Below are positions 2,114-31,308 of a DNA stretch of 64,000 nt, piece after piece. This DNA comes from Candidatus Omnitrophota bacterium. GTDB lineage: Bacteria; Omnitrophota; Gorgyraeia; Gygaellales; Profunditerraquicolaceae. How positions within the stretch are numbered: position 1 is the stretch's first letter; every line of letters starts with the position of its first letter. Where the stretch lies: contig JBAZNT010000001.1 of NCBI GenBank assembly GCA_041649115.1, positions 12,325-76,324 of the forward strand, read 5' to 3'. A program made the translations under genes and the position numbers. The notes under the pieces are model-generated. The model saw nothing but the letters and a program-made list of their open reading frames with translations. It was not told where the DNA came from and searched no databases.

Positions 2114-3734
2114 CGTAGTTCAATTCTCCCTTGGCAACCAGTTCCTTTGCGAGGCGTTCGAGGATGGCGTCTTCCTTGCGCAAGAGGTCTTCGACCTCTC
2201 TGAGGCACATATTCAATATGTCCTGTACATCTATGTCAAGGCGGTTCCTGGTGGATTCCGATACAAATTCGGCATTCTTGAAGACGTGGAAATTACCGAT
2301 GACCCCGGATTTGCCCATTCCCCAGCGCCATACCATATTATGGGCGATGTAAAGTGCTTTCTGGAAATCCGAGTCCACCCCGGCGGTGGTAGTGCCGAGC
2401 TTAAGCCTCTCGGCAGCGTAGGAGCCCAGGCAGGTCTTAATCTCGCCGAGCAGCTTTTGTTTGTCCGGTATGAAGATTTCTTCTTTTTCGGGGGTCCAGG
2501 TCACCCCTCCGGTATAACCGCGCGGGGTGATGGTTACTTTGAATACGTCCTGGGTAGGCACAAGCAGGTAAGTAACGATGGCGTGGCCGGCTTCGTGATA
2601 GGCGGCCTGCAGCTTTTCTTCCTCGCGTACCTTGATGCGGCGTTTAATGCCGAGCGAGATTCTTTCGCGGGCATCGTCAATCTCTTTCATGGAGATGAGG
2701 TTTTTCTTGCGGCGCACCGCTATTAATGCGGATTCACGCACGATATTGGCGATATCCGCCGGGCTGTTTCCTACGGTGATGCGGGCAAGCCGGTCGGTCT
2801 TGACGCTCGTCTGGTCGTATTTGACCTCTTTTAGGTAATATTCGAATAATTTCTGCCGGTCCTCGAGACTGGGCTTATCTACGTAGATCTTGCGGTCAAA
2901 CCTGCCGGGCCTCAGCAGCGCCACGTCTAAATAATTTTCCGGGGCATTGGTCGCCCCTATAATCACGATGTTGGTGTCTTTTTCCTTTAAGCCGTCCATC
3001 TCCACCAATAATTGGTTTAAGGTCTGGTTGTGCTCGGTGGTGCCGCCTCCGCCTGTTTCTATCCCGCGCCTGGCGCCTAGGGCGTCAAGTTCGTCAATAA
3101 AAATGATGCAGCCGCCCTCGATTTCGGCCAACTCTCGCGCGTTTTTAAAAAGATTGCGGATCCTCCCGGCGCCTACGCCTACGAACATCTCCACGAATTC
3201 CGAGCCTGACATGGAAATGAAAGGAATCCCGGCCTCGGTGGCGATGGCCTTGGCAAGATAGGTTTTGCCGCATCCGGGAGGTCCGAGCATCAAGAGTCCC
3301 CTCAGGATCCTGCCCCCGATGCGCTGTAATTCGGCGCGGTCCTTGATGAGATTGACGATCTCTGAGGCCTCTTCTTTGGCTTCATCCATCCCTATGACAT
3401 CGCTCCAATGGATGCCGACATCCTTTCCGGAAACCGATTTTTTGCTGCTGTGAGTGAATTGCTGGCCGCCCTTTTTAAACTGCATCCAGTAGAGCATAAA
3501 AACGAACATCGTAGTCTGGATGGCTCCTACGATGACCCAGATAAAAATCTGCAGCGGATACATCGCCAATTGGGCCTGCCGCACGTAAGATTCCGCTTCA
3601 AACCATGCCTTGATGCCCTTGATTAAGAGGATGGCCAGAAGTATTAAGGCGGTGCTGGCAACCAGCCAAAGGATCATCCTTATCCAGTATAGCCTGAAAA
3701 ACCTTTTGGTTTTCTTCAAGTTCATCCGAATCAA
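2067..3734 (-). CDS. FtsH-family AAA+ zinc metalloprotease (short form, 555 aa)
   Basis: N-terminal TM helices, Walker A GPPGCGKT, Walker B IIFIDELD, second region of homology, and the zinc site HEAGHAIV. Confidence 0.85.
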   Translation of the reverse strand: MIRMNLKKTKRFFRLYWIRMILWLVASTALILLAILLIKGIKAWFEAESYVRQAQLAMYPLQIFIWVIVGAIQTTMFVFMLYWMQFKKGGQQFTHSSKKSVSGKDVGIHWSDVIGMDEAKEEASEIVNLIKDRAELQRIGGRILRGLLMLGPPGCGKTYLAKAIATEAGIPFISMSGSEFVEMFVGVGAGRIRNLFKNARELAEIEGGCIIFIDELDALGARRGIETGGGGTTEHNQTLNQLLVEMDGLKEKDTNIVIIGATNAPENYLDVALLRPGRFDRKIYVDKPSLEDRQKLFEYYLKEVKYDQTSVKTDRLARITVGNSPADIANIVRESALIAVRRKKNLISMKEIDDARERISLGIKRRIKVREEEKLQAAYHEAGHAIVTYLLVPTQDVFKVTITPRGYTGGVTWTPEKEEIFIPDKQKLLGEIKTCLGSYAAERLKLGTTTAGVDSDFQKALYIAHNMVWRWGMGKSGVIGNFHVFKNAEFVSESTRNRLDIDVQDILNMCLREVEDLLRKEDAILERLAKELVAKGELNYDEIEAIFKEFGKNRP

Positions 3735-6554: not shown

Positions 6555-6624
6555 CTTGACAAAAACCTGAACGAATGATATATTTTATTTGTGAACATAT
6601 GTTCATATAATGATGTATTGTTCA
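6555..6624 (+). promoter_or_regulatory. efflux-operon promoter plus palindromic operator(s)
   Basis: TTGACA (6555-6560), 18-nt spacer, TATATT (6579-6584), then the perfect palindrome TGAACATATGTTCA (6592-6605). A degenerate second site TGATGTATTGTTCA lies at 6611-6624. Confidence 0.6.
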
Positions 6625-6679
6625 TACAAAATGCAGGCGGTATATCTTGGCAGGGTAAGGGCGGCGGTGAAGAAAGACT

Positions 6680-20556: not shown

Positions 20557-23460
20557 ATGTTATACCGCATCCAGATTACGGAAAGACCGGGTATTTTTGA
20601 CGCTGTCGGCTCCGGCATTGCCAGGGATATCCGCGACCTCGGCATTAAGGCGGTCGAGTCGGTGCATTTTGCCCAGATTTATAATATCGAAGGAGAGCTT
20701 TCCGTTTCGGATGCCGAGACCATTGCCCGCGAACTGCTGGTAGACAGGCTGACCCAGAATTATATTATTAATGCCCGTCGCAATACTGGCGAGGGTCCTG
20801 ACGAATCCGTGGTGGAAATAGCTTATAACCCCGGCGTAATGGATCCCGTTGAGGATTCGGTCTTGAAGGCTATCAGCGACCTGGGGATTAGAGGCGTACG
20901 TTGCGTTAAGACTGCCAAGAGGTACCTGCTTAAAGGCAGGCTCAACGCGCAGCAGCTAAAGACCATTTCAGAAAAATTGCTCTACAATAAATTAATCCAG
21001 CACAGCGTGGACCTATCTTTGCCGGAAGCTACGGCTCCTGAGATAGCGCCATACCGCTTTAGACTCATTACGGTTGAGTTGTTAGGGGCCGACGATAGAG
21101 AACTTAAAAGAATAAGCAGGGACGGCCAGTTATTCCTGAATCTGGCCGAGATGCAGAGAATCAGGAGGTACTTTAAGGATATCGGACGCAACCCCACCGA
21201 CTGCGAACTGGAGACCGTTGCCCAGACCTGGTCGGAGCACTGCGGGCATAAGACCTTTCGCGGGGACATTGAGTATAAATTCAAAGATAGCCCTCTCGCC
21301 ACCCGTTTCAAGACGCGCAAGATAAAAAATCTCCTTAAGTCTACCATTATGAAGGTAACCCGCGAGCTTGCTAAGCCCTGGTGCGTGTCGGTATTTGAGG
21401 ATAATTCCGGGGTTATCAGGTTTGACGATAAATACAACGTTTGTTTTAAGGTAGAGACCCATAACCATCCTTCGGCGCTGGAGCCGTTCGGAGGCGCCAA
21501 TACCGGTATCGGCGGAGTAATCCGTGATCCTTTGGGAACAGGTCTGGGCGCCAGGCCGTTTTTAAACACCGATGTTTTTTGTTTCGGTCCGACGGATTAT
21601 CCCTTCAGCAAGCTGCCGCCTGGAGTGCTGCATCCCAAGCGGGTAATGAAAGGGGTAGTTTCCGGGGTGCGCGATTACGGGAACAAGATGGGTATTCCTA
21701 CCGTTAACGGCGCGGTGTTATTCCATGAAGGTTTTGTAGGAAATCCCCTCGTTTATTGCGGCACTGCCGGTTTAATACCCAAGGATAAGACCGCCAAGCG
21801 CGTGCGGCCGGGGGATTTGGTGGTAGTGGTTGGGGGCAGGACCGGCAGGGACGGTATCCACGGCGCAACATTTTCTTCGGGAGAGCTGACCCATGAATCC
21901 GAGAGCGTCTCAAGCGGCGCAGTGCAGATCGGAAACCCTATCCAGGAGAAAAAGATGCTCGATACGATTATGGAGGCGCGCGACTTGAACCTTTACAGCG
22001 CCATTACAGATTGCGGCGCCGGCGGCTTATCTAGCGCTGTCGGAGAAATGGGCAAGGATATCGGAGCGCGGGTTGACCTGGAGAAGGTGCCTTTGAAATA
22101 TACGGGCTTATCATATACCGAGATATGGATTTCGGAATCGCAGGAACGCATGGTCTTAGCAGTGCCGAGGAAGAACGCCGGCAGGTTAATCCAAATATTC
22201 AGCCGCGAGGATACGGAGGCCACGGTTATCGGGGAGTTTGTCCCTACCGGGAAGCTCGAGCTTTATTACGAAAGTAACAAGGTCTGCGAGCTGGATATGG
22301 AATTTCTGCATAATGGCTTTCCGCGCCTGAGCAAAAAAGCAGTATACCTTGCCTCCCGCCACCGCGAACCAAGGCTGCAATGCCCTTCGGGATTAACTGA
22401 TACCCTGTTGAAGCTTCTCTCGCGTTATGATGTCTGCTCCAAGGAATGGATTATCAGGCAATACGACCATGAGGTGCAGGGAGGTTCGGTAATCAAGCCC
22501 CTGGCAGGCATCGACAATGACGGGCCTTCGGACGCCGCAGTGGTAAAACCCGTTCTCTGGAGCCCCAGGGCGGTCGTTATTTCCTGCGGTATCAATTTCA
22601 GATACGGTTTTGTCGACCCTTACTGGATGGCGGCCTCCTGCATTGACGAAGCCCTGCGGCAGATTGTTGCAACAGGAGGGTCGCTGAAACAGGCGGCGCT
22701 CCTGGATAATTTCTGCTGGGGTAATCCCGATAAGCCGGATCGGCTGGGGGGGCTCGTGCGGGCAGCGCTGGCATGTTATGACATCGCCAAAGGTTTCGGC
22801 GTGCCTTTTATCTCCGGCAAGGACAGCCTCAATAACGAATATGCGGTAGGAGGCAAATCAATAGCTATCCCCGGCACGCTTTTGATATCCGCCATGGCGG
22901 TGATGGATGACGCAAAGAATGCAGTTTCCATGTATGCCAAGGAGGCGGGGGATTTAATCTATGTCGTAGGCAAGACCTATCATGAGTTAGGAGGCTCACA
23001 TTATTATGACCTTTTAGGTTTTACGGGCAACAGCGTTCCGAAAGTAAATACCCGCATTGCCAGAGAGACATTCTTGAGGTTAAGCCGTGCCTCCGGGTCG
23101 GGGGTTATCAAGGCAATGCACGATTGTTCCGAGGGTGGCTTGGCAGTGGCAGCTGCCGAGATGGCCTTTGCCGGAGGCCGCGGGATGGAACTGTTTCTTT
23201 CCGAGGTGCCTTATTCCGCAAAAGGCAAAAAGAGCAACGATACCGTTTTGTTTTCAGAATCAAATTCCCGTTTTATTGTGGAGGTAGACAGGCGCAGGCA
23301 GAAACAATTTGAGCGGATGCTTGCGGGGGTTCCGTTCGGGCTGATGGGGTGTATATCAGAGGGGAGCGATTTTAAGGTCTGGGGCCTGGATAACAAGCTT
23401 TGCGTATCAACTGATATCGCGAGACTTAAAGAGGCCTGGCAGGCGCCATTGAGGTGGTAA
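20557..23460 (+). CDS. purL: FGAM synthase subunit PurL with two N-terminal PurS-like modules (PurS-PurS-PurL fusion)
   Basis: The PurL core starts near residue 180 (TWSEHCGHKTF, VETHNHPSALEPFGGANTG, GKDSLNNEY). The N-terminal ~175 aa form two ~85-aa segments resembling PurS. Confidence 0.92.
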   Translation: MLYRIQITERPGIFDAVGSGIARDIRDLGIKAVESVHFAQIYNIEGELSVSDAETIARELLVDRLTQNYIINARRNTGEGPDESVVEIAYNPGVMDPVEDSVLKAISDLGIRGVRCVKTAKRYLLKGRLNAQQLKTISEKLLYNKLIQHSVDLSLPEATAPEIAPYRFRLITVELLGADDRELKRISRDGQLFLNLAEMQRIRRYFKDIGRNPTDCELETVAQTWSEHCGHKTFRGDIEYKFKDSPLATRFKTRKIKNLLKSTIMKVTRELAKPWCVSVFEDNSGVIRFDDKYNVCFKVETHNHPSALEPFGGANTGIGGVIRDPLGTGLGARPFLNTDVFCFGPTDYPFSKLPPGVLHPKRVMKGVVSGVRDYGNKMGIPTVNGAVLFHEGFVGNPLVYCGTAGLIPKDKTAKRVRPGDLVVVVGGRTGRDGIHGATFSSGELTHESESVSSGAVQIGNPIQEKKMLDTIMEARDLNLYSAITDCGAGGLSSAVGEMGKDIGARVDLEKVPLKYTGLSYTEIWISESQERMVLAVPRKNAGRLIQIFSREDTEATVIGEFVPTGKLELYYESNKVCELDMEFLHNGFPRLSKKAVYLASRHREPRLQCPSGLTDTLLKLLSRYDVCSKEWIIRQYDHEVQGGSVIKPLAGIDNDGPSDAAVVKPVLWSPRAVVISCGINFRYGFVDPYWMAASCIDEALRQIVATGGSLKQAALLDNFCWGNPDKPDRLGGLVRAALACYDIAKGFGVPFISGKDSLNNEYAVGGKSIAIPGTLLISAMAVMDDAKNAVSMYAKEAGDLIYVVGKTYHELGGSHYYDLLGFTGNSVPKVNTRIARETFLRLSRASGSGVIKAMHDCSEGGLAVAAAEMAFAGGRGMELFLSEVPYSAKGKKSNDTVLFSESNSRFIVEVDRRRQKQFERMLAGVPFGLMGCISEGSDFKVWGLDNKLCVSTDIARLKEAWQAPLRW

Positions 23461-23461
23461 G

Positions 23462-24115
23462 ATGAAGAGACCAGCATTGCACGATGATTTTACCAGCGAG
23501 GATACCTGGCGGATATTCCGCATCATGTCGGAATTTGTGGACGGTTTTGAGGTATTGTCGCAGATAGGCAAGGCCGTATCAATTTTCGGCTCCAGCCGTT
23601 CAAAACCGCACGATAAATATTACAAATTGACCGAGGAGGTTGCGTATCTGCTGGCCAAGAACGGCTTTGCCGTTATCACCGGAGGCGGCCCCGGCATCAT
23701 GGAGGCTGCCAATAAAGGAGCCCGCCGGGCAAAGGGGCATTCCATCGGGCTCAATATCCAGATACCATCGGAGCAGAAACCCAATCCCTACATAGATACC
23801 CTGCTGGATTTCCACTATTTCTTCGTGCGTAAGGTAATGTTTGTAAAATACGCCAAGGCCTTCGTGATTATGCCGGGGGGTTACGGAACGCTGGATGAAT
23901 TTTTTGAAGCCGCTAATCTTATTCAGACGCGCAGGATAAAGCGTTTCCCGGTAGTCCTCTTCGGGAGCAAATACTGGGAAGGGATGATTGGCTGGCTTAA
24001 ACGGGAAGTATTGCGCCAGGGCAATATCAGCCCCGCAGACCTGGATATCTTTAAGGTGGCCGATACCCCGCGGCAGGCAGCGGAAATCGTAAAAAGATTC
24101 TATGAAAAGACCTAA
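23462..24115 (+). CDS. LOG-family (TIGR00730 / lysine-decarboxylase-like) nucleotide phosphoribohydrolase
   Basis: Motifs ITGGGPGIMEAANKGA and MPGGYGTLDEFFE (PGGxGTxxE). Confidence 0.85.
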   Translation: MKRPALHDDFTSEDTWRIFRIMSEFVDGFEVLSQIGKAVSIFGSSRSKPHDKYYKLTEEVAYLLAKNGFAVITGGGPGIMEAANKGARRAKGHSIGLNIQIPSEQKPNPYIDTLLDFHYFFVRKVMFVKYAKAFVIMPGGYGTLDEFFEAANLIQTRRIKRFPVVLFGSKYWEGMIGWLKREVLRQGNISPADLDIFKVADTPRQAAEIVKRFYEKT

Positions 24116-24902: not shown

Positions 24903-26325
24903 CGATCGGCCAAAGGAGTTCTGCGGTTTGTTCGGGATATACGGCCACAAGCAGGCGAGCTGGCTTACGTATTTAGGGCTGTATGCCCTTCAGCACCGCG
25001 GCCAGGAGGCCTGCGGTATCGCAGTTAATAACAAGGGAAGCATCCTTGTGCACAGGCAGACGGGCCTGGTCAGCGATGCCTTTGGGGGCGAGATGCTCAA
25101 CAGGTTAAAAGGGGATATGGCGGTAGGGCACGTGCGTTATTCGACCACGGGCTCCAGCATTCTAAAGAATGCCCAGCCTCTTTTAATAGATTATGCCAAG
25201 GGGTCGGTCTGCATTGCCCACAACGGAAACCTTGTAAATTCGCTTATCCTGCGTCAGTACCTTGAGAGGCGCGGTTCGATATTCCAGACTACCACGGATT
25301 CCGAGCTTATCATCCACCTGATGGCCAGGGCCCAATCGCGCGGCTTAAAAGAGAGCCTTTTCTACGCCCTCCGGCGTATCAGGGGCGCTTATTCTTTGGT
25401 AATGATGGATGAAAAGAACTTAATCGGGGTACGCGACCCGCTGGGGTTCAGGCCCCTAGCCTTGGGGAAGCTCGGCAGCAGCTGGTGCCTGGCCTCGGAG
25501 ACCTGCGCATTTGATTTGATAGGCGCCAGGTTTATCCGCGAGGTAGAGCCCGGAGAGGTAATTTTTATCAATAACCAAGGCCTTAAGTCCTTTAGGCCGA
25601 AGGAGTGGAATAAGAAGGCGCATCATGCCTTCTGTACTTTCGAGCACGTTTATTTTTCCAGGCCGGATTCGGTTGTTTTCGGAGAGACAGTGCATCTGGT
25701 GCGGCGTAAGCTCGGTGCGCAATTGGCGCGCGAATATCCGGTGGATGCGGATTTTGTAATACCGGTGCCGGACTCCGGATTTTCCGCAGCCCTAGGGTTT
25801 TCACAGGAATCAGGCATCCCCTTAGAGCTGGGCATCATTCGCAATCACTACGTAGGCAGGACATTTATCCAGCCGGCGCAGGATATCCGCGACCTGGGGG
25901 TGCGGGTGAAATTCAATTTATTGCGCGATATCATCAAGGGCAAGAGTATAGTCATCGTAGATGATTCCATCGTGCGCGGCACTACTTCAAAGATACGCGT
26001 GCGCAACCTCCGCGCTGTCGGCGTAAAAGAGGTGCATCTGCGAATTTCGTGCCCGGCACACCGTTTCCCGTGTTTTTACGGGATTGATTTTCACCGTTCC
26101 TCCGAATTGATCGCCAACCGCTATGATTCCGCAGAGATGATAAAGCGATATCTGGGGGTAGACAGCCTTGGCTATTTGAGCCTGGGAGGGATGTTAGGGT
26201 GCCTAAAGAACCCCAGGGATAATTATTGCACTGCCTGCTGGACGGGTAAGTATCCGGTTATCCCGGAGAAGAAAGCGGGTAAATTTTCACTGGAGGCCCG
26301 TTGCTGCGGCCAGGGGGATATTTAG
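24886..26325 (+). CDS. purF: amidophosphoribosyltransferase
   Basis: Short propeptide then CGLFGIYG (Ntn Cys), the PRPP loop VIVDDSIVRGTT, and Fe-S cysteines (CFYGID, CTACWTGKYP). I chose the ATG at 24886; the ORF-track start lies inside purQ. Confidence 0.95.
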   Translation: MPENFNDRPKEFCGLFGIYGHKQASWLTYLGLYALQHRGQEACGIAVNNKGSILVHRQTGLVSDAFGGEMLNRLKGDMAVGHVRYSTTGSSILKNAQPLLIDYAKGSVCIAHNGNLVNSLILRQYLERRGSIFQTTTDSELIIHLMARAQSRGLKESLFYALRRIRGAYSLVMMDEKNLIGVRDPLGFRPLALGKLGSSWCLASETCAFDLIGARFIREVEPGEVIFINNQGLKSFRPKEWNKKAHHAFCTFEHVYFSRPDSVVFGETVHLVRRKLGAQLAREYPVDADFVIPVPDSGFSAALGFSQESGIPLELGIIRNHYVGRTFIQPAQDIRDLGVRVKFNLLRDIIKGKSIVIVDDSIVRGTTSKIRVRNLRAVGVKEVHLRISCPAHRFPCFYGIDFHRSSELIANRYDSAEMIKRYLGVDSLGYLSLGGMLGCLKNPRDNYCTACWTGKYPVIPEKKAGKFSLEARCCGQGDI

Positions 26326-26327
26326 GG

Positions 26328-27350
26328 ATGGGGAAGCTGACTTACCGCAAGGCAGGCGTGGATATAGAGAAGGCGAGGGATTTTAAGAACAATATCAAAT
26401 TCCTGCTGCGGCGCTCTTTTAGGTCCGGCGCGCGCCGCGACATAGGAGGGTTCGGCGGTTTCTTTGACCTTTCTGCGATTAAAATGAAGAGCCCGGTTTT
26501 GGTTTCTTCAGCGGACGGGGTGGGGACGAAGCTTAAGATCGCAACCCTTGCCCATAAACACGATACTGTCGGGATTGACCTGGTGGGCATGAATGTCAAT
26601 GATATACTTTGCACCGGCGCAGAGCCGTTGTTTTTTCTTGATTATATCGCCTGCAGCAAACTGGATGCGTCTGTTCTCTACGAGGTAGTGCGTGGCATAA
26701 CCGCAGGTTGCGTGCAGGCAGGTTGCGCCCTGGTCGGGGGAGAGACTGCCGAGATGCCCGGGATGTATGCAAAGGGAGAATATGACCTGGCAGGTTTTTG
26801 CGTGGGCGCCGCGGAAAAGGCCGATATTATTGACGGCAGCCGCATTGAAGCCGGTGACGTAATCTTGGGTATTGAGTCCAGCGGCCTGCACTCCAACGGG
26901 TTCTCCCTGGTAAGAAAGGTCTTTAGCCAGAAAACGCTGAAAAGCTTATCAGCAGAACTTCTTAAGCCAACCCGTATTTACGTGAAGCCGCTTTTGTCAT
27001 TGTTGCGCAGCAAGGCGCTTAAGCAGCGCTTAAGCCGTGCAGTAAAAGGCATCGCGCATATCACCGGCGGAGCATTTTATGACAAGATCGCCAGGATCCT
27101 GCCTTCTAATGCAGACGCCTTGATTAGAAAGTATTCCTGGGATATCCCAAAGATATTCTTTCTCATTCAGAATAAAGGCGCTATCCCTGAGCGGCAGATG
27201 TATCATACCTTGAATATGGGTATCGGGATGGTTTTAATTGTGAGGCCGGCATTTGAGAGGCGGATAAAATCCGAGCTTGCCTGCCTCGGGGTTAAATCAT
27301 GGAGCATCGGGGAGATTATTAAGGGTAGTGGCAGGGTTGATATTGTTTAG
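26328..27350 (+). CDS. purM: phosphoribosylformylglycinamidine cyclo-ligase (AIR synthetase)
   Basis: Motifs LTYRKAGVDI, DGVGTKLKIA, DYIA, GGETAEMPG and HSNGFSL. Confidence 0.95.
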   Translation: MGKLTYRKAGVDIEKARDFKNNIKFLLRRSFRSGARRDIGGFGGFFDLSAIKMKSPVLVSSADGVGTKLKIATLAHKHDTVGIDLVGMNVNDILCTGAEPLFFLDYIACSKLDASVLYEVVRGITAGCVQAGCALVGGETAEMPGMYAKGEYDLAGFCVGAAEKADIIDGSRIEAGDVILGIESSGLHSNGFSLVRKVFSQKTLKSLSAELLKPTRIYVKPLLSLLRSKALKQRLSRAVKGIAHITGGAFYDKIARILPSNADALIRKYSWDIPKIFFLIQNKGAIPERQMYHTLNMGIGMVLIVRPAFERRIKSELACLGVKSWSIGEIIKGSGRVDIV

Positions 27351-27383
27351 CGCTAAGAGGTAGCAGCCGGCGCTATGTTGTAC

Positions 27384-27761
27384 CTGACGTAAAAAGGAAT
27401 TACGTCAGTATTCGCCCCGTAGCGAAAATTGCTCCGGCGTTCCGATTTTAATTTACGCCCAAACCTATCGTACCTTGACTTAAAGGAATGTCAAGTACGC
27501 CCTTTCTGGGCTGGATGGTTTGGCGTGCGTCTCTACGATTTACACCCAATCCTAAAGGATGGATTGGTGTTCGCCTCGTGGCGAAATTGCGTTGGTAGCG
27601 CAGAAGCGCACACTTGCCTATCCGGTAAGGCAAGGTGTGTTCTGTCTCTACAGCTAACACCCAACGCCAAGTGGAATTGCGTTGGTGTTCTGTCTCTACA
27701 GCTAACACCCAACGCCAAGTGGAATTGCGTTGGTGTTCTGTCTCTACAGAAGGAGGGTAGG
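27384..27761 (+). ncRNA. highly structured leader or candidate regulatory RNA with GGA-loop hairpins
   Basis: Stem-loops lie at 27384-27408 (loop AAAGGAA), 27474-27495 (loop TTAAAGGAAT), 27546-27567 (loop TAAAGGAT), 27570-27585, 27609-27639, 27661-27685 and 27709-27733 (loops CAAGTGGAATT). The SD AAGGAGGG is at 27750-27757. No credible ORF explains the region. Confidence 0.55.
27637..27749 (+). repeat. 48-bp exact tandem repeat (2.35 units)
   Basis: The unit GTGTTCTGTCTCTACAGCTAACACCCAACGCCAAGTGGAATTGCGTTG starts at 27637 and 27685, and again (truncated) at 27733. A diverged older unit lies at about 27522-27572. Confidence 0.95.
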
Positions 27762-28436
27762 ATGAGGTTTTTAAAGGTATTTTTGGCGTTGGTTTTGATG
27801 TTGCAATTGGCAGCACCGTTTGGCATCTCTGCCGATGATGTCAATGTCAATCTCCTGCTGCAGGAGACGCAGAAAAGAAGCGAGAAGTCAGGCGAGATAA
27901 ATTTCATCTGGTGGATACCCGAGGAATACTGGAGGGCAAGCCTTGCCCAGAATCCCAGCACCACTCCTCAGCAGGTCGATGCGATTGTGAGCGTTTTTAA
28001 GCCTTATGTGGTAGTGGCGGTAGTGGAAGGCAAGGTTGACGTCTCCGGAAACATTGCCTACAACAGCGAGGCGGACATCCGTTCCAAATTGCGGCTTGTC
28101 GATTCTCAAGGAAACGTATATTCTCCGCTTGCCGATGACGGGATAAACGTAAGCACCAAGAGTTTCCTGGCAATGATGAAGCCGATGCTGGCAAATATCC
28201 TTGGCCCCATGGGGCAGAATATGTATTTTTACACATTTGTTGCCAAAGACAAAAACGGGACGGATATCGCTGACCCCAGAAAAGAAGGCGCCTTTAGCGT
28301 AAGGTTGGGCGAGAAGGATTTTAAGTGGGAACTGCCTTTGAGTTCGTTGGTGCCGGAGAAGATATGCCCTAGCTGTAAACGCAAACTAAACGGTACCTAT
28401 AAGTATTGTCCTTTTGACGGGACGCCGCTGCCTTAA
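27762..28436 (+). CDS. hypothetical secreted protein with a C-terminal Cys-rich (zinc-ribbon-like) tail
   Basis: SD plus ATG at 27762, signal peptide MRFLKVFLALVLMLQLAAPFGISA, and the C-terminus CPSCKRKLNGTYKYCPFDGTPL. The 111-codon N-terminal extension in the ORF track is read-through of the in-frame 48-bp repeats. Confidence 0.7.
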   Translation: MRFLKVFLALVLMLQLAAPFGISADDVNVNLLLQETQKRSEKSGEINFIWWIPEEYWRASLAQNPSTTPQQVDAIVSVFKPYVVVAVVEGKVDVSGNIAYNSEADIRSKLRLVDSQGNVYSPLADDGINVSTKSFLAMMKPMLANILGPMGQNMYFYTFVAKDKNGTDIADPRKEGAFSVRLGEKDFKWELPLSSLVPEKICPSCKRKLNGTYKYCPFDGTPLP

Positions 28437-29753: not shown

Positions 29754-30242
29754 ATGAAAAATCCGCTTGTCAGCGTTGTAATGGGGAGCCAGTCAGACCT
29801 TGAGGTAGTCAGGGAGGCCATAGAGGTATTAAAGGGGCTCAGTATTAAGTTTGAGGTCAAGGTGTTGTCCGCTCACCGCACCCCTAAGGAATTGGCCGCT
29901 TACGTAGAGGGGTGTTCTAAGAGAGGGGTGAAGATATTGATTGCCGCAGCCGGCGGAGCAGCAGCATTGGCAGGAGTTATTGCTGCGCACACCACCCTGC
30001 CTGTTATCGGCATACCGATTGAGACCAGGAGTCTTAAAGGGCTGGATTCGCTCTTATCTACGGTACAGATGCCTGCCGGGGTAGCGGTAGCATCGATGGC
30101 TATCGGTAAGGCCGGGGCCAAAAACGCCGCTCTCTTTGCAGCTGCGATACTTGCGCTTGGCGACAGAAGGATTGCCAGAGACCTGGCGGATTTGCGCAGG
30201 CAATCGCGTCTTAAGATACGCAAAATTAAAATCAAAATCTAA
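29754..30242 (+). CDS. purE: N5-CAIR mutase / PurE family
   Basis: VMGSQSDL, LSAHRTP, QMPAGVAV, AIGKAGAKNAAL. Confidence 0.9.
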   Translation: MKNPLVSVVMGSQSDLEVVREAIEVLKGLSIKFEVKVLSAHRTPKELAAYVEGCSKRGVKILIAAAGGAAALAGVIAAHTTLPVIGIPIETRSLKGLDSLLSTVQMPAGVAVASMAIGKAGAKNAALFAAAILALGDRRIARDLADLRRQSRLKIRKIKIKI

Positions 30243-30246
30243 TCTT

Positions 30247-31308
30247 ATGCCTAATACCAGGATTGTCAAGGTTGACCCGTTGCATCCGGCTCCGGAATAT
30301 CTCTCAGAGGCAGCTGATGTCGTAATGACCGGGGGCCTGGCGATAATACCTACGGAGACCGTTTACGGGATTGCCGCTAATATGGCGAACAAAAAAACCT
30401 TGGAGCGCCTCTATGAAATCAAGAAGAGGCCGAAGGATAAGCCATTTTCACTGCATATTGATAACAGGGAGGAGGCGGAGAAGTTTTGCGCGGACATACC
30501 GGTCGCTGCCTACAAGCTTATGGACAGGTTTTGGCCCGGTCCTCTTACGCTGGTGTTAAAATCACGCGACAGCGGCAAGATAGGGATAAGGCTTCCCGAT
30601 AATGCGATTGCGCAGAAGGTAATCGCGGATTCGGGGGTGGCGGTAGTATGCCCTTCTGCCAATCTTTCAGGAAAGGCTGCGCCGGTTGATTTTCAAGAGG
30701 CTATTGCGGATTTAAGAGGCCTGGTAGATTTTGCCATTGATGCAGGCCCTACCGTATTGAAGATGGAATCTTCTGTGGTGGATGCCTCGGCCGTGCCGGT
30801 ACGTATCCTGCGGGAAGGCGCGCTTGTCAGTAAGGATATCGAGGTTGTTGCTGCCAGGAAAATAGTTTTGTTTGTCTGTACCGGAAACTCTTGCCGTTCG
30901 GTAATGGCTGCGGCGTTGCTTAAGAAGAAGTTGCAGGATAAAAAGAGGGATGACGTGGATGTGCTTTCAGCCGGCATTATGCTGGGAGGGGGCTTTGGCG
31001 CAACAGATGAAACGCGCCAACTCCTCAAGGAGGAAGGCATTGACGTTTCGCGGCACCAATCCCGCGGCATCAATAGGGATATCATCCATAAGGCCGATAT
31101 TATCCTGGTAATGGAGCGTTTCCACGAGCAGAGGGTGCTGCAGATGGTGCCCGAGGTAAAAAATAGGGTGTTTTTATTGAAGGAATTTGCTAAAATAAAG
31201 GATAACAAGCTGGATATAGAAGATCCCATCGGCAGAGAGGATGGTTTTTACCGCCGGACCTTTGAATTGATTAAAGAGGCGATAGAGAGAGTGAGCGATA
31301 TTATATGA
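30247..31308 (+). CDS. fusion: L-threonylcarbamoyladenylate synthase (TsaC/YwlC, Sua5/YrdC domain) + low-molecular-weight phosphatase (YwlE-like)
   Basis: The N-terminal half has IIPTETVYGIAAN, KKRPKDKPFSLH and WPGPLTLVL. The C-terminal half has the LMW-PTP P-loop VCTGNSCRS and the DP acid loop (IEDPIG). Confidence 0.85.
   Translation: MPNTRIVKVDPLHPAPEYLSEAADVVMTGGLAIIPTETVYGIAANMANKKTLERLYEIKKRPKDKPFSLHIDNREEAEKFCADIPVAAYKLMDRFWPGPLTLVLKSRDSGKIGIRLPDNAIAQKVIADSGVAVVCPSANLSGKAAPVDFQEAIADLRGLVDFAIDAGPTVLKMESSVVDASAVPVRILREGALVSKDIEVVAARKIVLFVCTGNSCRSVMAAALLKKKLQDKKRDDVDVLSAGIMLGGGFGATDETRQLLKEEGIDVSRHQSRGINRDIIHKADIILVMERFHEQRVLQMVPEVKNRVFLLKEFAKIKDNKLDIEDPIGREDGFYRRTFELIKEAIERVSDII

Follow-up and report, generated by a model that had tools for sequence, protein, structure and literature searches.

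A hairpin-rich spacer in an Omnitrophota purine cluster is probably an array of a dispersed two-hairpin DNA repeat

We analysed a 64-kb stretch of contig JBAZNT010000001.1 from a Candidatus Omnitrophota bacterium (hereafter the window), in which the 411-nt spacer between purM and the next gene of a purine cluster is packed with stem-loops that expose GGA. The spacer had been proposed, from its sequence, to be a leader or sponge RNA for a CsrA/RsmA-type protein. We find that its hairpins belong to a new small repeat family, a two-hairpin unit of 41–46 nt that is dispersed in Omnitrophota genomes. The spacer is probably an array of this proliferating, structure-conserved DNA repeat and a passenger of the operon rather than an operon-specific regulator. 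Comparison of filled and empty sites shows that new copies arise by DNA insertion; tandem duplication is a further source of array growth, and the copies of one genome become homogenised.

The descriptive core of the original prediction held up. We confirmed the extent of the gap and its lack of a credible open reading frame (ORF), the source-assembly gene caller having called no gene in 27351–27761, together with all five GGA-loop hairpins in position, stem and loop, the Shine–Dalgarno (SD) sequence abutted by the last unit, and the homology of units whose stems differ by compensatory changes. Absent from that description were a second hairpin, a reversed unit (U4), nested units, an exact 48-nt tandem repeat and the occurrence of the unit elsewhere. 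The closing pairs of the GGA hairpins (hp1 in what follows) are conserved as YAC...GTR and accompanied by a bulged C. Directly 3' of every hp1 lies another small hairpin (hp2; TTCGCCtcgtGGCGAA, GCCCtttctGGGC and CTGTctctACAG are examples), whose loop is rich in pyrimidines, and the two make up one unit. The layout of hp1 is R-YAC, the bulged C, a 5–8-bp stem of nearly any sequence, the loop TAWNGGAT and GTR, and that of hp2 a 4–7-bp stem with a loop such as yTTCT, TTACT or CTCCT.

At least eight copies of the unit lie in the gap, six intact (U1 to U6) and two split by nested insertion, and together with remnants they occupy 388 of its 411 nt (94%; 27362–27749). Read on its own strand, which for the reversed unit is the − strand, each of the six intact units has an hp1 loop that presents GGA. 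The segments on either side of U2 (27455–27470 and 27513–27537), when rejoined, restore a canonical unit, ACGCCCAAACC-TATCGGAT-GGTTTGGCGTG plus CGTctctACG, with the loop TATCGGAT. U1 is probably nested in a second split unit, with less certainty than for the one around U2: 27362–27380 rejoined with 27427–27442 gives a stem GCCGGCGC/GCTCCGGC with one mismatch and a loop TATGTTGAATT that resembles the loop TTATTTGAATT of a related locus (L014).

To place the unit in a wider context, we compared the window with the 80 closest purM loci in the genome collection, all from Omnitrophota metagenome-assembled genomes (a few Third Party Annotation records are labelled otherwise) and designated by L numbers; the nearest is L001 (JBAZKK010000002), with a PurM identity of 85%. 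A covariance model built from 20 units (R1) matched the window in the purM gap alone, with U3 as the top match at 52.7 bits, and identified 24 units across 14 of the 80 loci. Their contexts include positions 5' of purF (L006), after purD (L072), inside purQ and purL, and 5' of an SPFH gene in six loci (L012, L014, L035, L041, L058 and L062); in L034, units in both orientations lie 3' of the homologue of the window's downstream gene. A dedicated unit scanner recovered 208 units, most of them intergenic, from 1.6 Mb of related loci, compared with 16 from reversed sequence. GGA was present in 184 of the 208 hp1 loops and in 1 of the 16 from the reversed-sequence control, and the loop consensus across the family is TAWNGGAT with a conserved GGA core. 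An hp2 followed 178 of 207 hp1 hairpins (86%), compared with ~10% at random positions, its loops including TTTCT, CTTCT, TTACT and CTCCT.

The unit is also found in metagenomes, where a scan with the pattern CACCC-N5-TATCGGAT-N5-GGTG, its arms left free and pairing not forced, matched at least 120 stretches; the same pattern had no match in 2.9 million viral contigs. Among the matches listed, four metagenome contigs carry orthologues of window proteins in the Omnitrophota range (66–77% identity). The GGA core extends beyond this GGA-containing pattern, being found in 54 of the 78 loops of units outside it, the commonest of which are TAAAGGAT, TATCGGAT and TATAGGAT. Two units abut the 5' ends of tRNA-Gly genes (L133:3695-3737, GCC anticodon; L147:6977-7019, TCC anticodon). 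In both, hp2 shares its 3' arm with the initial 3 nt of the tRNA, and AGGT takes the place of the pyrimidine-rich loop that hp2 usually has. We found no description of such repeats in literature on Omnitrophota combined with palindromic or repetitive extragenic palindromic (REP) elements, transposable elements of the miniature inverted-repeat type (MITEs), REP-associated tyrosine transposases (RAYTs) or CsrA. A locus-specific CsrA/RsmA target or sponge, as originally proposed, is not supported: the units are dispersed before unrelated genes, beside tRNA genes and in coding sequences, and are in part antisense.

Filled and empty sites could be compared both within genes and between them. The purQ genes of L022 and L018 contain exactly 42 extra nt (14 amino acids) between GGC and AAC, at the unit, and five purQ sites lack this insert (the window, L048, L023, L076 and L013). 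In purL, 17 extra amino acids are found at the unit in L048 and 25 in L076, and pheT of L158 holds an in-frame unit; the L048 and L158 inserts encode one peptide, HPALSDRPVRASA. Empty purM-to-SPFH spacers consist of TAA, a few bases and then AAAGGAGG; filled ones have the unit squeezed in immediately 5' of AAGGAGG. Units nested within the hp1 loop of another unit number at least 11 of 178, compared with 8 of 712 control excisions. Junctions between filled and empty sites are ambiguous by 1–2 G residues and are compatible with a duplication of 0–2 nt. We rejected the idea that hp2 is copied in inverted form from the flank of the target, empty sites being without its 3' arm, and the SD as a part of the unit, an SD-like motif occurring in 12 of 114 units without a nearby start, compared with 7% at random. 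ORFs bracketed by inverted unit pairs were likewise rejected as transposases; they are pheT and a lipoprotein-like gene.

Turnover is evident even against the nearest relative. The window and L001 (~88% amino acid identity) have in common only U3 and the SD-proximal tandem units; the gap measures 411 nt in one and 308 nt in the other, and its 5' 250 nt cannot be aligned. The positional counterpart of U3 (L001:4548-4593) has a different stem and loop, and the tandem pair (27637–27749 in the window; L001:4630-4740) keeps the same arrangement with sequence variants of its own. Tandem copies are 100% identical within a genome and differ between genomes at the same positions in both copies, a pattern that indicates concerted evolution or repeated re-duplication of the array. 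The loop shared by both tandem units is CAAGTGGAATT in the window and CAAGCGGTATT in L001, where GGT replaces GGA. Homologues of the downstream gene occur at only two of the 80 loci, L001 (88% identity) and L034 (49%), and no unit was found upstream of the L034 homologue; the leader is therefore not conserved with the gene.

Stem pairing in the unit is strict and almost independent of sequence. Among the pattern matches listed, the N5 arms were perfectly complementary in 109 of 129 and had one mismatch in 16; because the scan pattern had left the arms unconstrained, this demonstrates the hairpin non-circularly. The arms took 41 distinct sequences among 125 hairpins, and of 625 variable stem pairs 609 were Watson–Crick and 2 were G·T, with 11 of the rest being T·C at the loop-closing position. 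Full units were unique in sequence in 172 of 178 cases, with stems still perfect. Helices selected as RNA normally tolerate wobble pairs, and the near absence of G·U (2 of 625) therefore points to pairing maintained in DNA rather than to RNA selection, the interpretation first given to the compensatory stem changes. Hairpin-templated correction of quasi-palindromes is a known process and may act on the units, or else the folded single strand may be what a protein reads.

The unit also occupies a defined position relative to translation starts. Of the 208 units, 80 had downstream, in sense, an SD with a start codon that opens a long ORF, and in 63 of these 80 the start codon followed hp1 by 23–29 nt (12 in the antisense control), so that hp2 touches the SD; the hp2–SD junction seen at U6 recurs across the family. 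The distance to the upstream stop codon is variable (0–7 nt or more). Between co-directional genes, units were sense and antisense in a ratio of 75 to 25, and those within one contig mostly share an orientation. For 64 SD-adjacent units, the predicted mean unpaired probability of the SD was 0.66 when the unit was native; shuffling the unit lowered it to 0.43 (native more open in 52 of 64, P = 2e-8), and removing the unit raised it to 0.81. This indicates a unit that pairs within itself and disturbs the SD little. In the minimum-free-energy fold of the window's last unit, UCUCU pairs with GGAGG; sequestration of the SD by an anti-SD-like hp2 loop was rejected as a general feature, the SD being more open than with shuffled units across the 64.

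The gap itself folds more stably as RNA than dinucleotide-shuffled sequence on both strands (+ strand, z = −5.2; − strand, z = −7.7). A scan for promoters and terminators in the gap gave background-level results and, because no such signal stands out, the array is probably co-transcribed. At the purM locus the units would thus be co-transcribed passengers in the spacer between purM and the downstream gene. Folding on themselves, they would add stable hairpins 5' of the SD while leaving it reasonably accessible, and the array may buffer the downstream cistron against decay; it would not be a gene-specific or purine-specific regulator. A trans-acting protein, other than the RAYT examined here, would recognise the folded single strand by its closing pairs, bulged C and GGA loop, and Watson–Crick pairing would be kept in DNA by a process such as hairpin-templated correction.

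Several observations weigh against a proliferating passenger repeat. The window holds a single unit cluster, a low copy density, and only four of the metagenome contigs have Omnitrophota-level protein identity, the taxonomy of the rest being unproven. Neither a target-site duplication nor a sharp target motif is definable from the junctions, so that a clear insertion signature is missing, and we found no mobilising enzyme near any unit in the 1.6 Mb; the Y1_Tnp (RAYT-like) genes of L080 and L202 are flanked by a different palindrome, GGGGTCAGACCCC-CTAC, with a full GTAG tag in L202. Diverse copies with perfect stems are unexpected for a purely selfish, decaying element. Unique copies with intact stems imply some constraint or correction on each copy, which suggests either selection on every copy, that is, a host function, or active correction of the arms. 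Moreover, the 3:1 sense bias, the sharp SD-adjacent position and the conserved GGA loop fit a role at the RNA level. A more specific idea, which we put forward tentatively and consider doubtful, is that the units form a hitherto undescribed class homing to translation-initiation regions, either as a single-strand-hairpin mini-transposon targeting the purine-rich GGA tracts of SDs and of its own loops, or as a domesticated platform for a global GGA-loop-binding protein (CsrA-like or new) that Omnitrophota would have placed before many genes, with sequence free and structure kept by active DNA-level correction.

Three further explanations have to be set beside the passenger repeat. Were the unit a modular 5' leader domesticated by the host and acting as RNA, through decay protection, SD insulation, a GGA standby site for the 30S subunit or an abundant RNA-binding protein, its copy-and-paste origin would be secondary. 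The fixed distance from hp1 to the start codon alongside a variable distance to the upstream stop would be explained, as would the sense bias, the perfection of stems in nearly unique copies, a compensatory change in hp2 of orthologous purQ units (GTGC/GCAC in L022, GCGC/GCGC in L018), an SD more accessible than with shuffled units, and the polarity of the loops, with purine GGA in hp1 and pyrimidine-rich, anti-SD-like YTTCT/CTCCT in hp2. We nevertheless judge this explanation unlikely: the essential absence of wobble pairs is atypical for selected RNA helices; antisense, coding-sequence and nested copies require no RNA function; removing the unit opens the SD still further in silico; and the leader does not travel with its gene. 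A CsrA/RsmA target leader or sponge, in which dimers on the hp1 GGA loops and the SD GGA repress or titrate translation of the downstream gene, draws on some of the same features. No other loop element of the family is as conserved as GGA, TAAAGGATGG fits the core of the CsrA consensus from systematic evolution of ligands by exponential enrichment, reportedly ARGGAUG, and units show the 3:1 sense bias. CsrA dimers bridge sites spaced 10–63 nt apart, and the loop GGA lies ~30 nt 5' of the SD GGA, inside that spacing. Flagellar genes are present in some Omnitrophota (PMC11607428), which makes a fliW–csrA pair conceivable.

Against this stand the orthologous SD-proximal units of L001, which carry GGT, the TGA or GGT seen in L014 and L072, the quarter of units that are antisense (one is reversed in the purM gap itself), the copies in coding sequences and adjoining tRNA genes, and the conserved closing pairs, bulged C and hp2, which play no part in CsrA recognition. 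Searches with tblastn for CsrA, RsmE and FliW found no csrA or fliW in the window or the 1.6 Mb of related loci, a weak test that does not imply genome-wide absence. Rfam, which the original prediction had named as a check, offers no family that explains the gap: the window at gathering thresholds yielded only a tRNA located elsewhere, the gap at E up to 10 only two spurious eukaryotic matches, and ten loci that carry canonical units nothing beyond rRNA, tRNA and a group I intron, with no CsrB or Rsm family. Together with the scarcity of G·U pairs, this leaves CsrA regulation very unlikely. Even less probable, in our estimation, is a classical REP element or bacterial interspersed mosaic element (BIME) mobilised by a RAYT (Y1 HUH transposase). 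REPs are short palindromic multi-copy elements that form arrays, some of them inside genes (PMC3733652), as the units do, and one Omnitrophota pur cluster has a Y1_Tnp gene (PF01797, 7.7e-12; L080:3118-3825) with purE on one side and the Sua5/YrdC gene on the other, the one weak RAYT match obtained by tblastn with IS608 TnpA and E. coli RAYT in the window and all loci. However, REPs carry an unpaired GTAG or CGTC tag at one end and sit close to the 3' end of the upstream ORF at a variable distance from the downstream one (PMC3733652), whereas the units have no such tag either before hp1 (a purine at −1 and A/T at −3, with only a weak bias at −3 to −2) or after hp2, and are anchored to the SD, the opposite placement; their arrays are mostly in one orientation rather than alternating. 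A cognate RAYT gene is flanked by REP repeats (PMC2817692), and no YACC unit was found in the flanks of the four RAYT-like loci examined (L080 and, for homologues of its Y1_Tnp, L202, L203 and L204). The coordinates of the array and its neighbours are collected in Table 1.

Table 1. Features of the purM gap and flanking genes in window coordinates
Feature	Position	Strand	Details
purM (AIR synthetase), upstream gene	26301..27350	+	Pfam AIRS + AIRS_C; TIGR00878 at 6e-119
purM stop codon TAG	27348-27350	+	
Whole intercistronic gap	27351..27761	+	411 nt, purM stop to ATG at 27762
Probable 5' half of degenerate long-loop ('type B') unit split by U1	27362..27380	+	AGCAGCCGGCGC TATGTTG
Unit U1	27381..27426	+	hp1 27381-27410 (TACC-TGACGTAA-aaaggaa-TTACGTCA-GTA), hp2 27411-27426 (TTCGCcccgtaGCGAA); 39.4 bits
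GGA hairpin	27384-27408		Stem CTGACGTAA / TTACGTCAG, loop AAAGGAA
Probable 3' half of split type-B unit	27427..27442	+	AATT GCTCCGGCG TTC; 75% identity to AATTGCGTTGGTGTTC of U5/U6
5' half of unit split in loop by U2	27455..27470	+	ACGCC-CAAACC-TATCG
Unit U2, nested in split unit's loop	27471..27512	+	hp1 27471-27497 (loop TTAAAGGAAT), hp2 GCCCtttctGGGC; 36.9 bits
GGA hairpin	27474-27495		Stem CTTGAC / GTCAAG, loop TTAAAGGAAT
3' half of split unit and its hp2	27513..27537	+	GGAT-GGTTTG-GCGTG, hp2 CGTctctACG; direct repeat
Unit U3	27543..27585	+	hp1 27543-27569 (CACC-CAATCC-taaaggat-GGATTG-GTG), hp2 27570-27585 (TTCGCCtcgtGGCGAA)
GGA hairpin	27546-27567		Stem CCAATCC / GGATTGG, loop TAAAGGAT
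Remnant 3' half of type-B hp1	27585..27597	+	AATTGCGTTGGTA; first 12 nt (27585-27596) identical to loop-and-arm segment of U5/U6
Unit U4, reversed	27598..27637	−	hp1 27611-27637, hp2 27598-27609 (GCGCttctGCGC on − strand); 44 bits
Exact 48-nt tandem repeat, 2.4 copies	27637..27749	+	Tandem Repeats Finder: 100% matches, score 226; holds U5 + U6
Unit U5, type B	27658-27701	+	hp1 27658-27687, hp2 27688-27701; loop CAAGTGGAATT
GGA hairpins, two	27661-27685 and 27709-27733		Stem CCAACGC / GCGTTGG, loop CAAGTGGAATT
Unit U6, type B	27706-27749	+	hp1 27706-27735, hp2 27736-27749; loop CAAGTGGAATT
SD AAGGAGGG (27750-27757) and ATG (27762) of downstream gene	27750..27764	+	SD directly abutted by hp2 of U6
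Downstream gene	27762..28436	+	Orphan 224-aa protein, predicted signal peptide, between purM and purD

Neither Pfam nor NCBIfam matches the 224-residue product of the downstream gene, whose N terminus resembles a signal peptide and whose C terminus carries a CPSC…CPFDG motif. The purine cluster of the window has three other unusual features: 20557–23460 encodes a PurS–PurL fusion of 967 amino acids, a LOG/TIGR00730 'lysine decarboxylase-like' gene (23462–24115) lies between purL and purQ, and purE is followed by a gene for Sua5/YrdC fused to a low-molecular-weight phosphotyrosine phosphatase (30136–31308). The group I intron reported by Rfam in L147 (6621–6910, 102.6 bits) starts within a tRNA-Thr at 6581–6653 (ARAGORN and Rfam), and L147:6581-6910 may be an intron-containing tRNA gene.

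Other dispersed palindromes occur in the same loci. The Y1_Tnp gene of L080 has a 71%-identical orthologue at the same position in L202, 5' of which (upstream of 554) lies GTAG-GGGTCAGACCCC-CTAC; L080 has the same palindrome (3076–3088), but without the full GTAG tag. The GTAG palindrome and the Y1 gene look like a canonical GTAG-type REP/RAYT pair. Related to this palindrome is a second dispersed one, GGGACWGTCCC, present in 32 exact copies in 15 of 201 loci, with ~0.8 expected (L022:7015-7072, L022:908-918, L010:631-675, L170, L194 and others). It is intergenic and is also found inside L022 purL, where it encodes the peptide GTVP; fusion to the hp2 of a two-hairpin unit is frequent (..GCGGGGACAGTCCC). 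Yet another repeat, the third, is hairpin-like (…cattgcgag…cgaagcaatc…, for example TTGCGAGCCCCGAAGGGGCGAAGCAA); it lies in frame in purL of L022 at ~598–650 and recurs in the purM–SPFH spacers of L074 and L078.

The purM locus is an ordinary one for this family; what is unusual is the SD-locked position and the strict, sequence-free pairing. In Omnitrophota and comparable uncultured lineages, a long 'leader' full of hairpins can be a repeat pile-up, and a riboswitch-like or CsrA-type reading of such a leader needs a prior check of other loci. Short peptide inserts that are lineage-specific, in housekeeping enzymes such as PurQ, PurL and PheT, are likewise explained by the repeat. A two-hairpin unit, strict Watson–Crick stems of free sequence, a GGA loop, nested self-insertion and an SD-locked position are rarely combined and, if the SD association does reflect targeting or function, the family would be a simple system, provided by nature, in which to study the coexistence of small elements with translation initiation, or their tuning of it, where genomes are very compact.

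Known systems each match the unit in part. RNAs of the CsrA/RsmA type (CsrB, RsmY/Z, and the glgC or hag leaders) also present several GGA-loop hairpins with the last site at or near the SD; the units differ from them in being homologous copy-and-paste modules with conserved features outside the loop and a second hairpin, in occurring in both orientations and in coding sequences too, and in not keeping GGA at orthologous positions in L001. MITEs such as Correia, RUP and ERIC are likewise small non-autonomous repeats, often co-transcribed and able to alter the stability or translation of their neighbours, but the units are much smaller, have no terminal inverted repeats spanning the unit and no clear target-site duplication, and are not near-identical to one another. 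Rickettsia palindromic elements resemble the unit in their in-frame insertion into genes (here purQ, purL and pheT) and translation as an extra peptide; they measure ~100–150 bp and are known only from Rickettsia, whereas the units are about three times shorter, lie mostly between genes at SDs and belong to another phylum. With integron attC sites the unit shares a kept structure and variable sequence in an imperfect palindrome with an extrahelical base, as would be expected of a folded single strand that is read by a protein. The attC sites span 57–141 nt, carry RYYYAAC/GTTRRRY boxes and terminate gene cassettes at their 3' ends, with an integrase as neighbour; such boxes, cassettes and an integrase neighbour were not seen at the units. 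Closest in kind are REP/BIME elements. The two differ in that each unit has two different hairpins, in the near freedom of its stem sequences, in anchoring to a downstream SD in place of an upstream stop codon, and in the prevailing single orientation of its arrays. Both nonetheless are short imperfect palindromes (hp1 spans 27–30 nt) with a conserved bulge, are present in many, mostly intergenic copies that form arrays and sometimes enter genes, are plausibly transcribed as hairpins, and come in lineage-specific sequence types.

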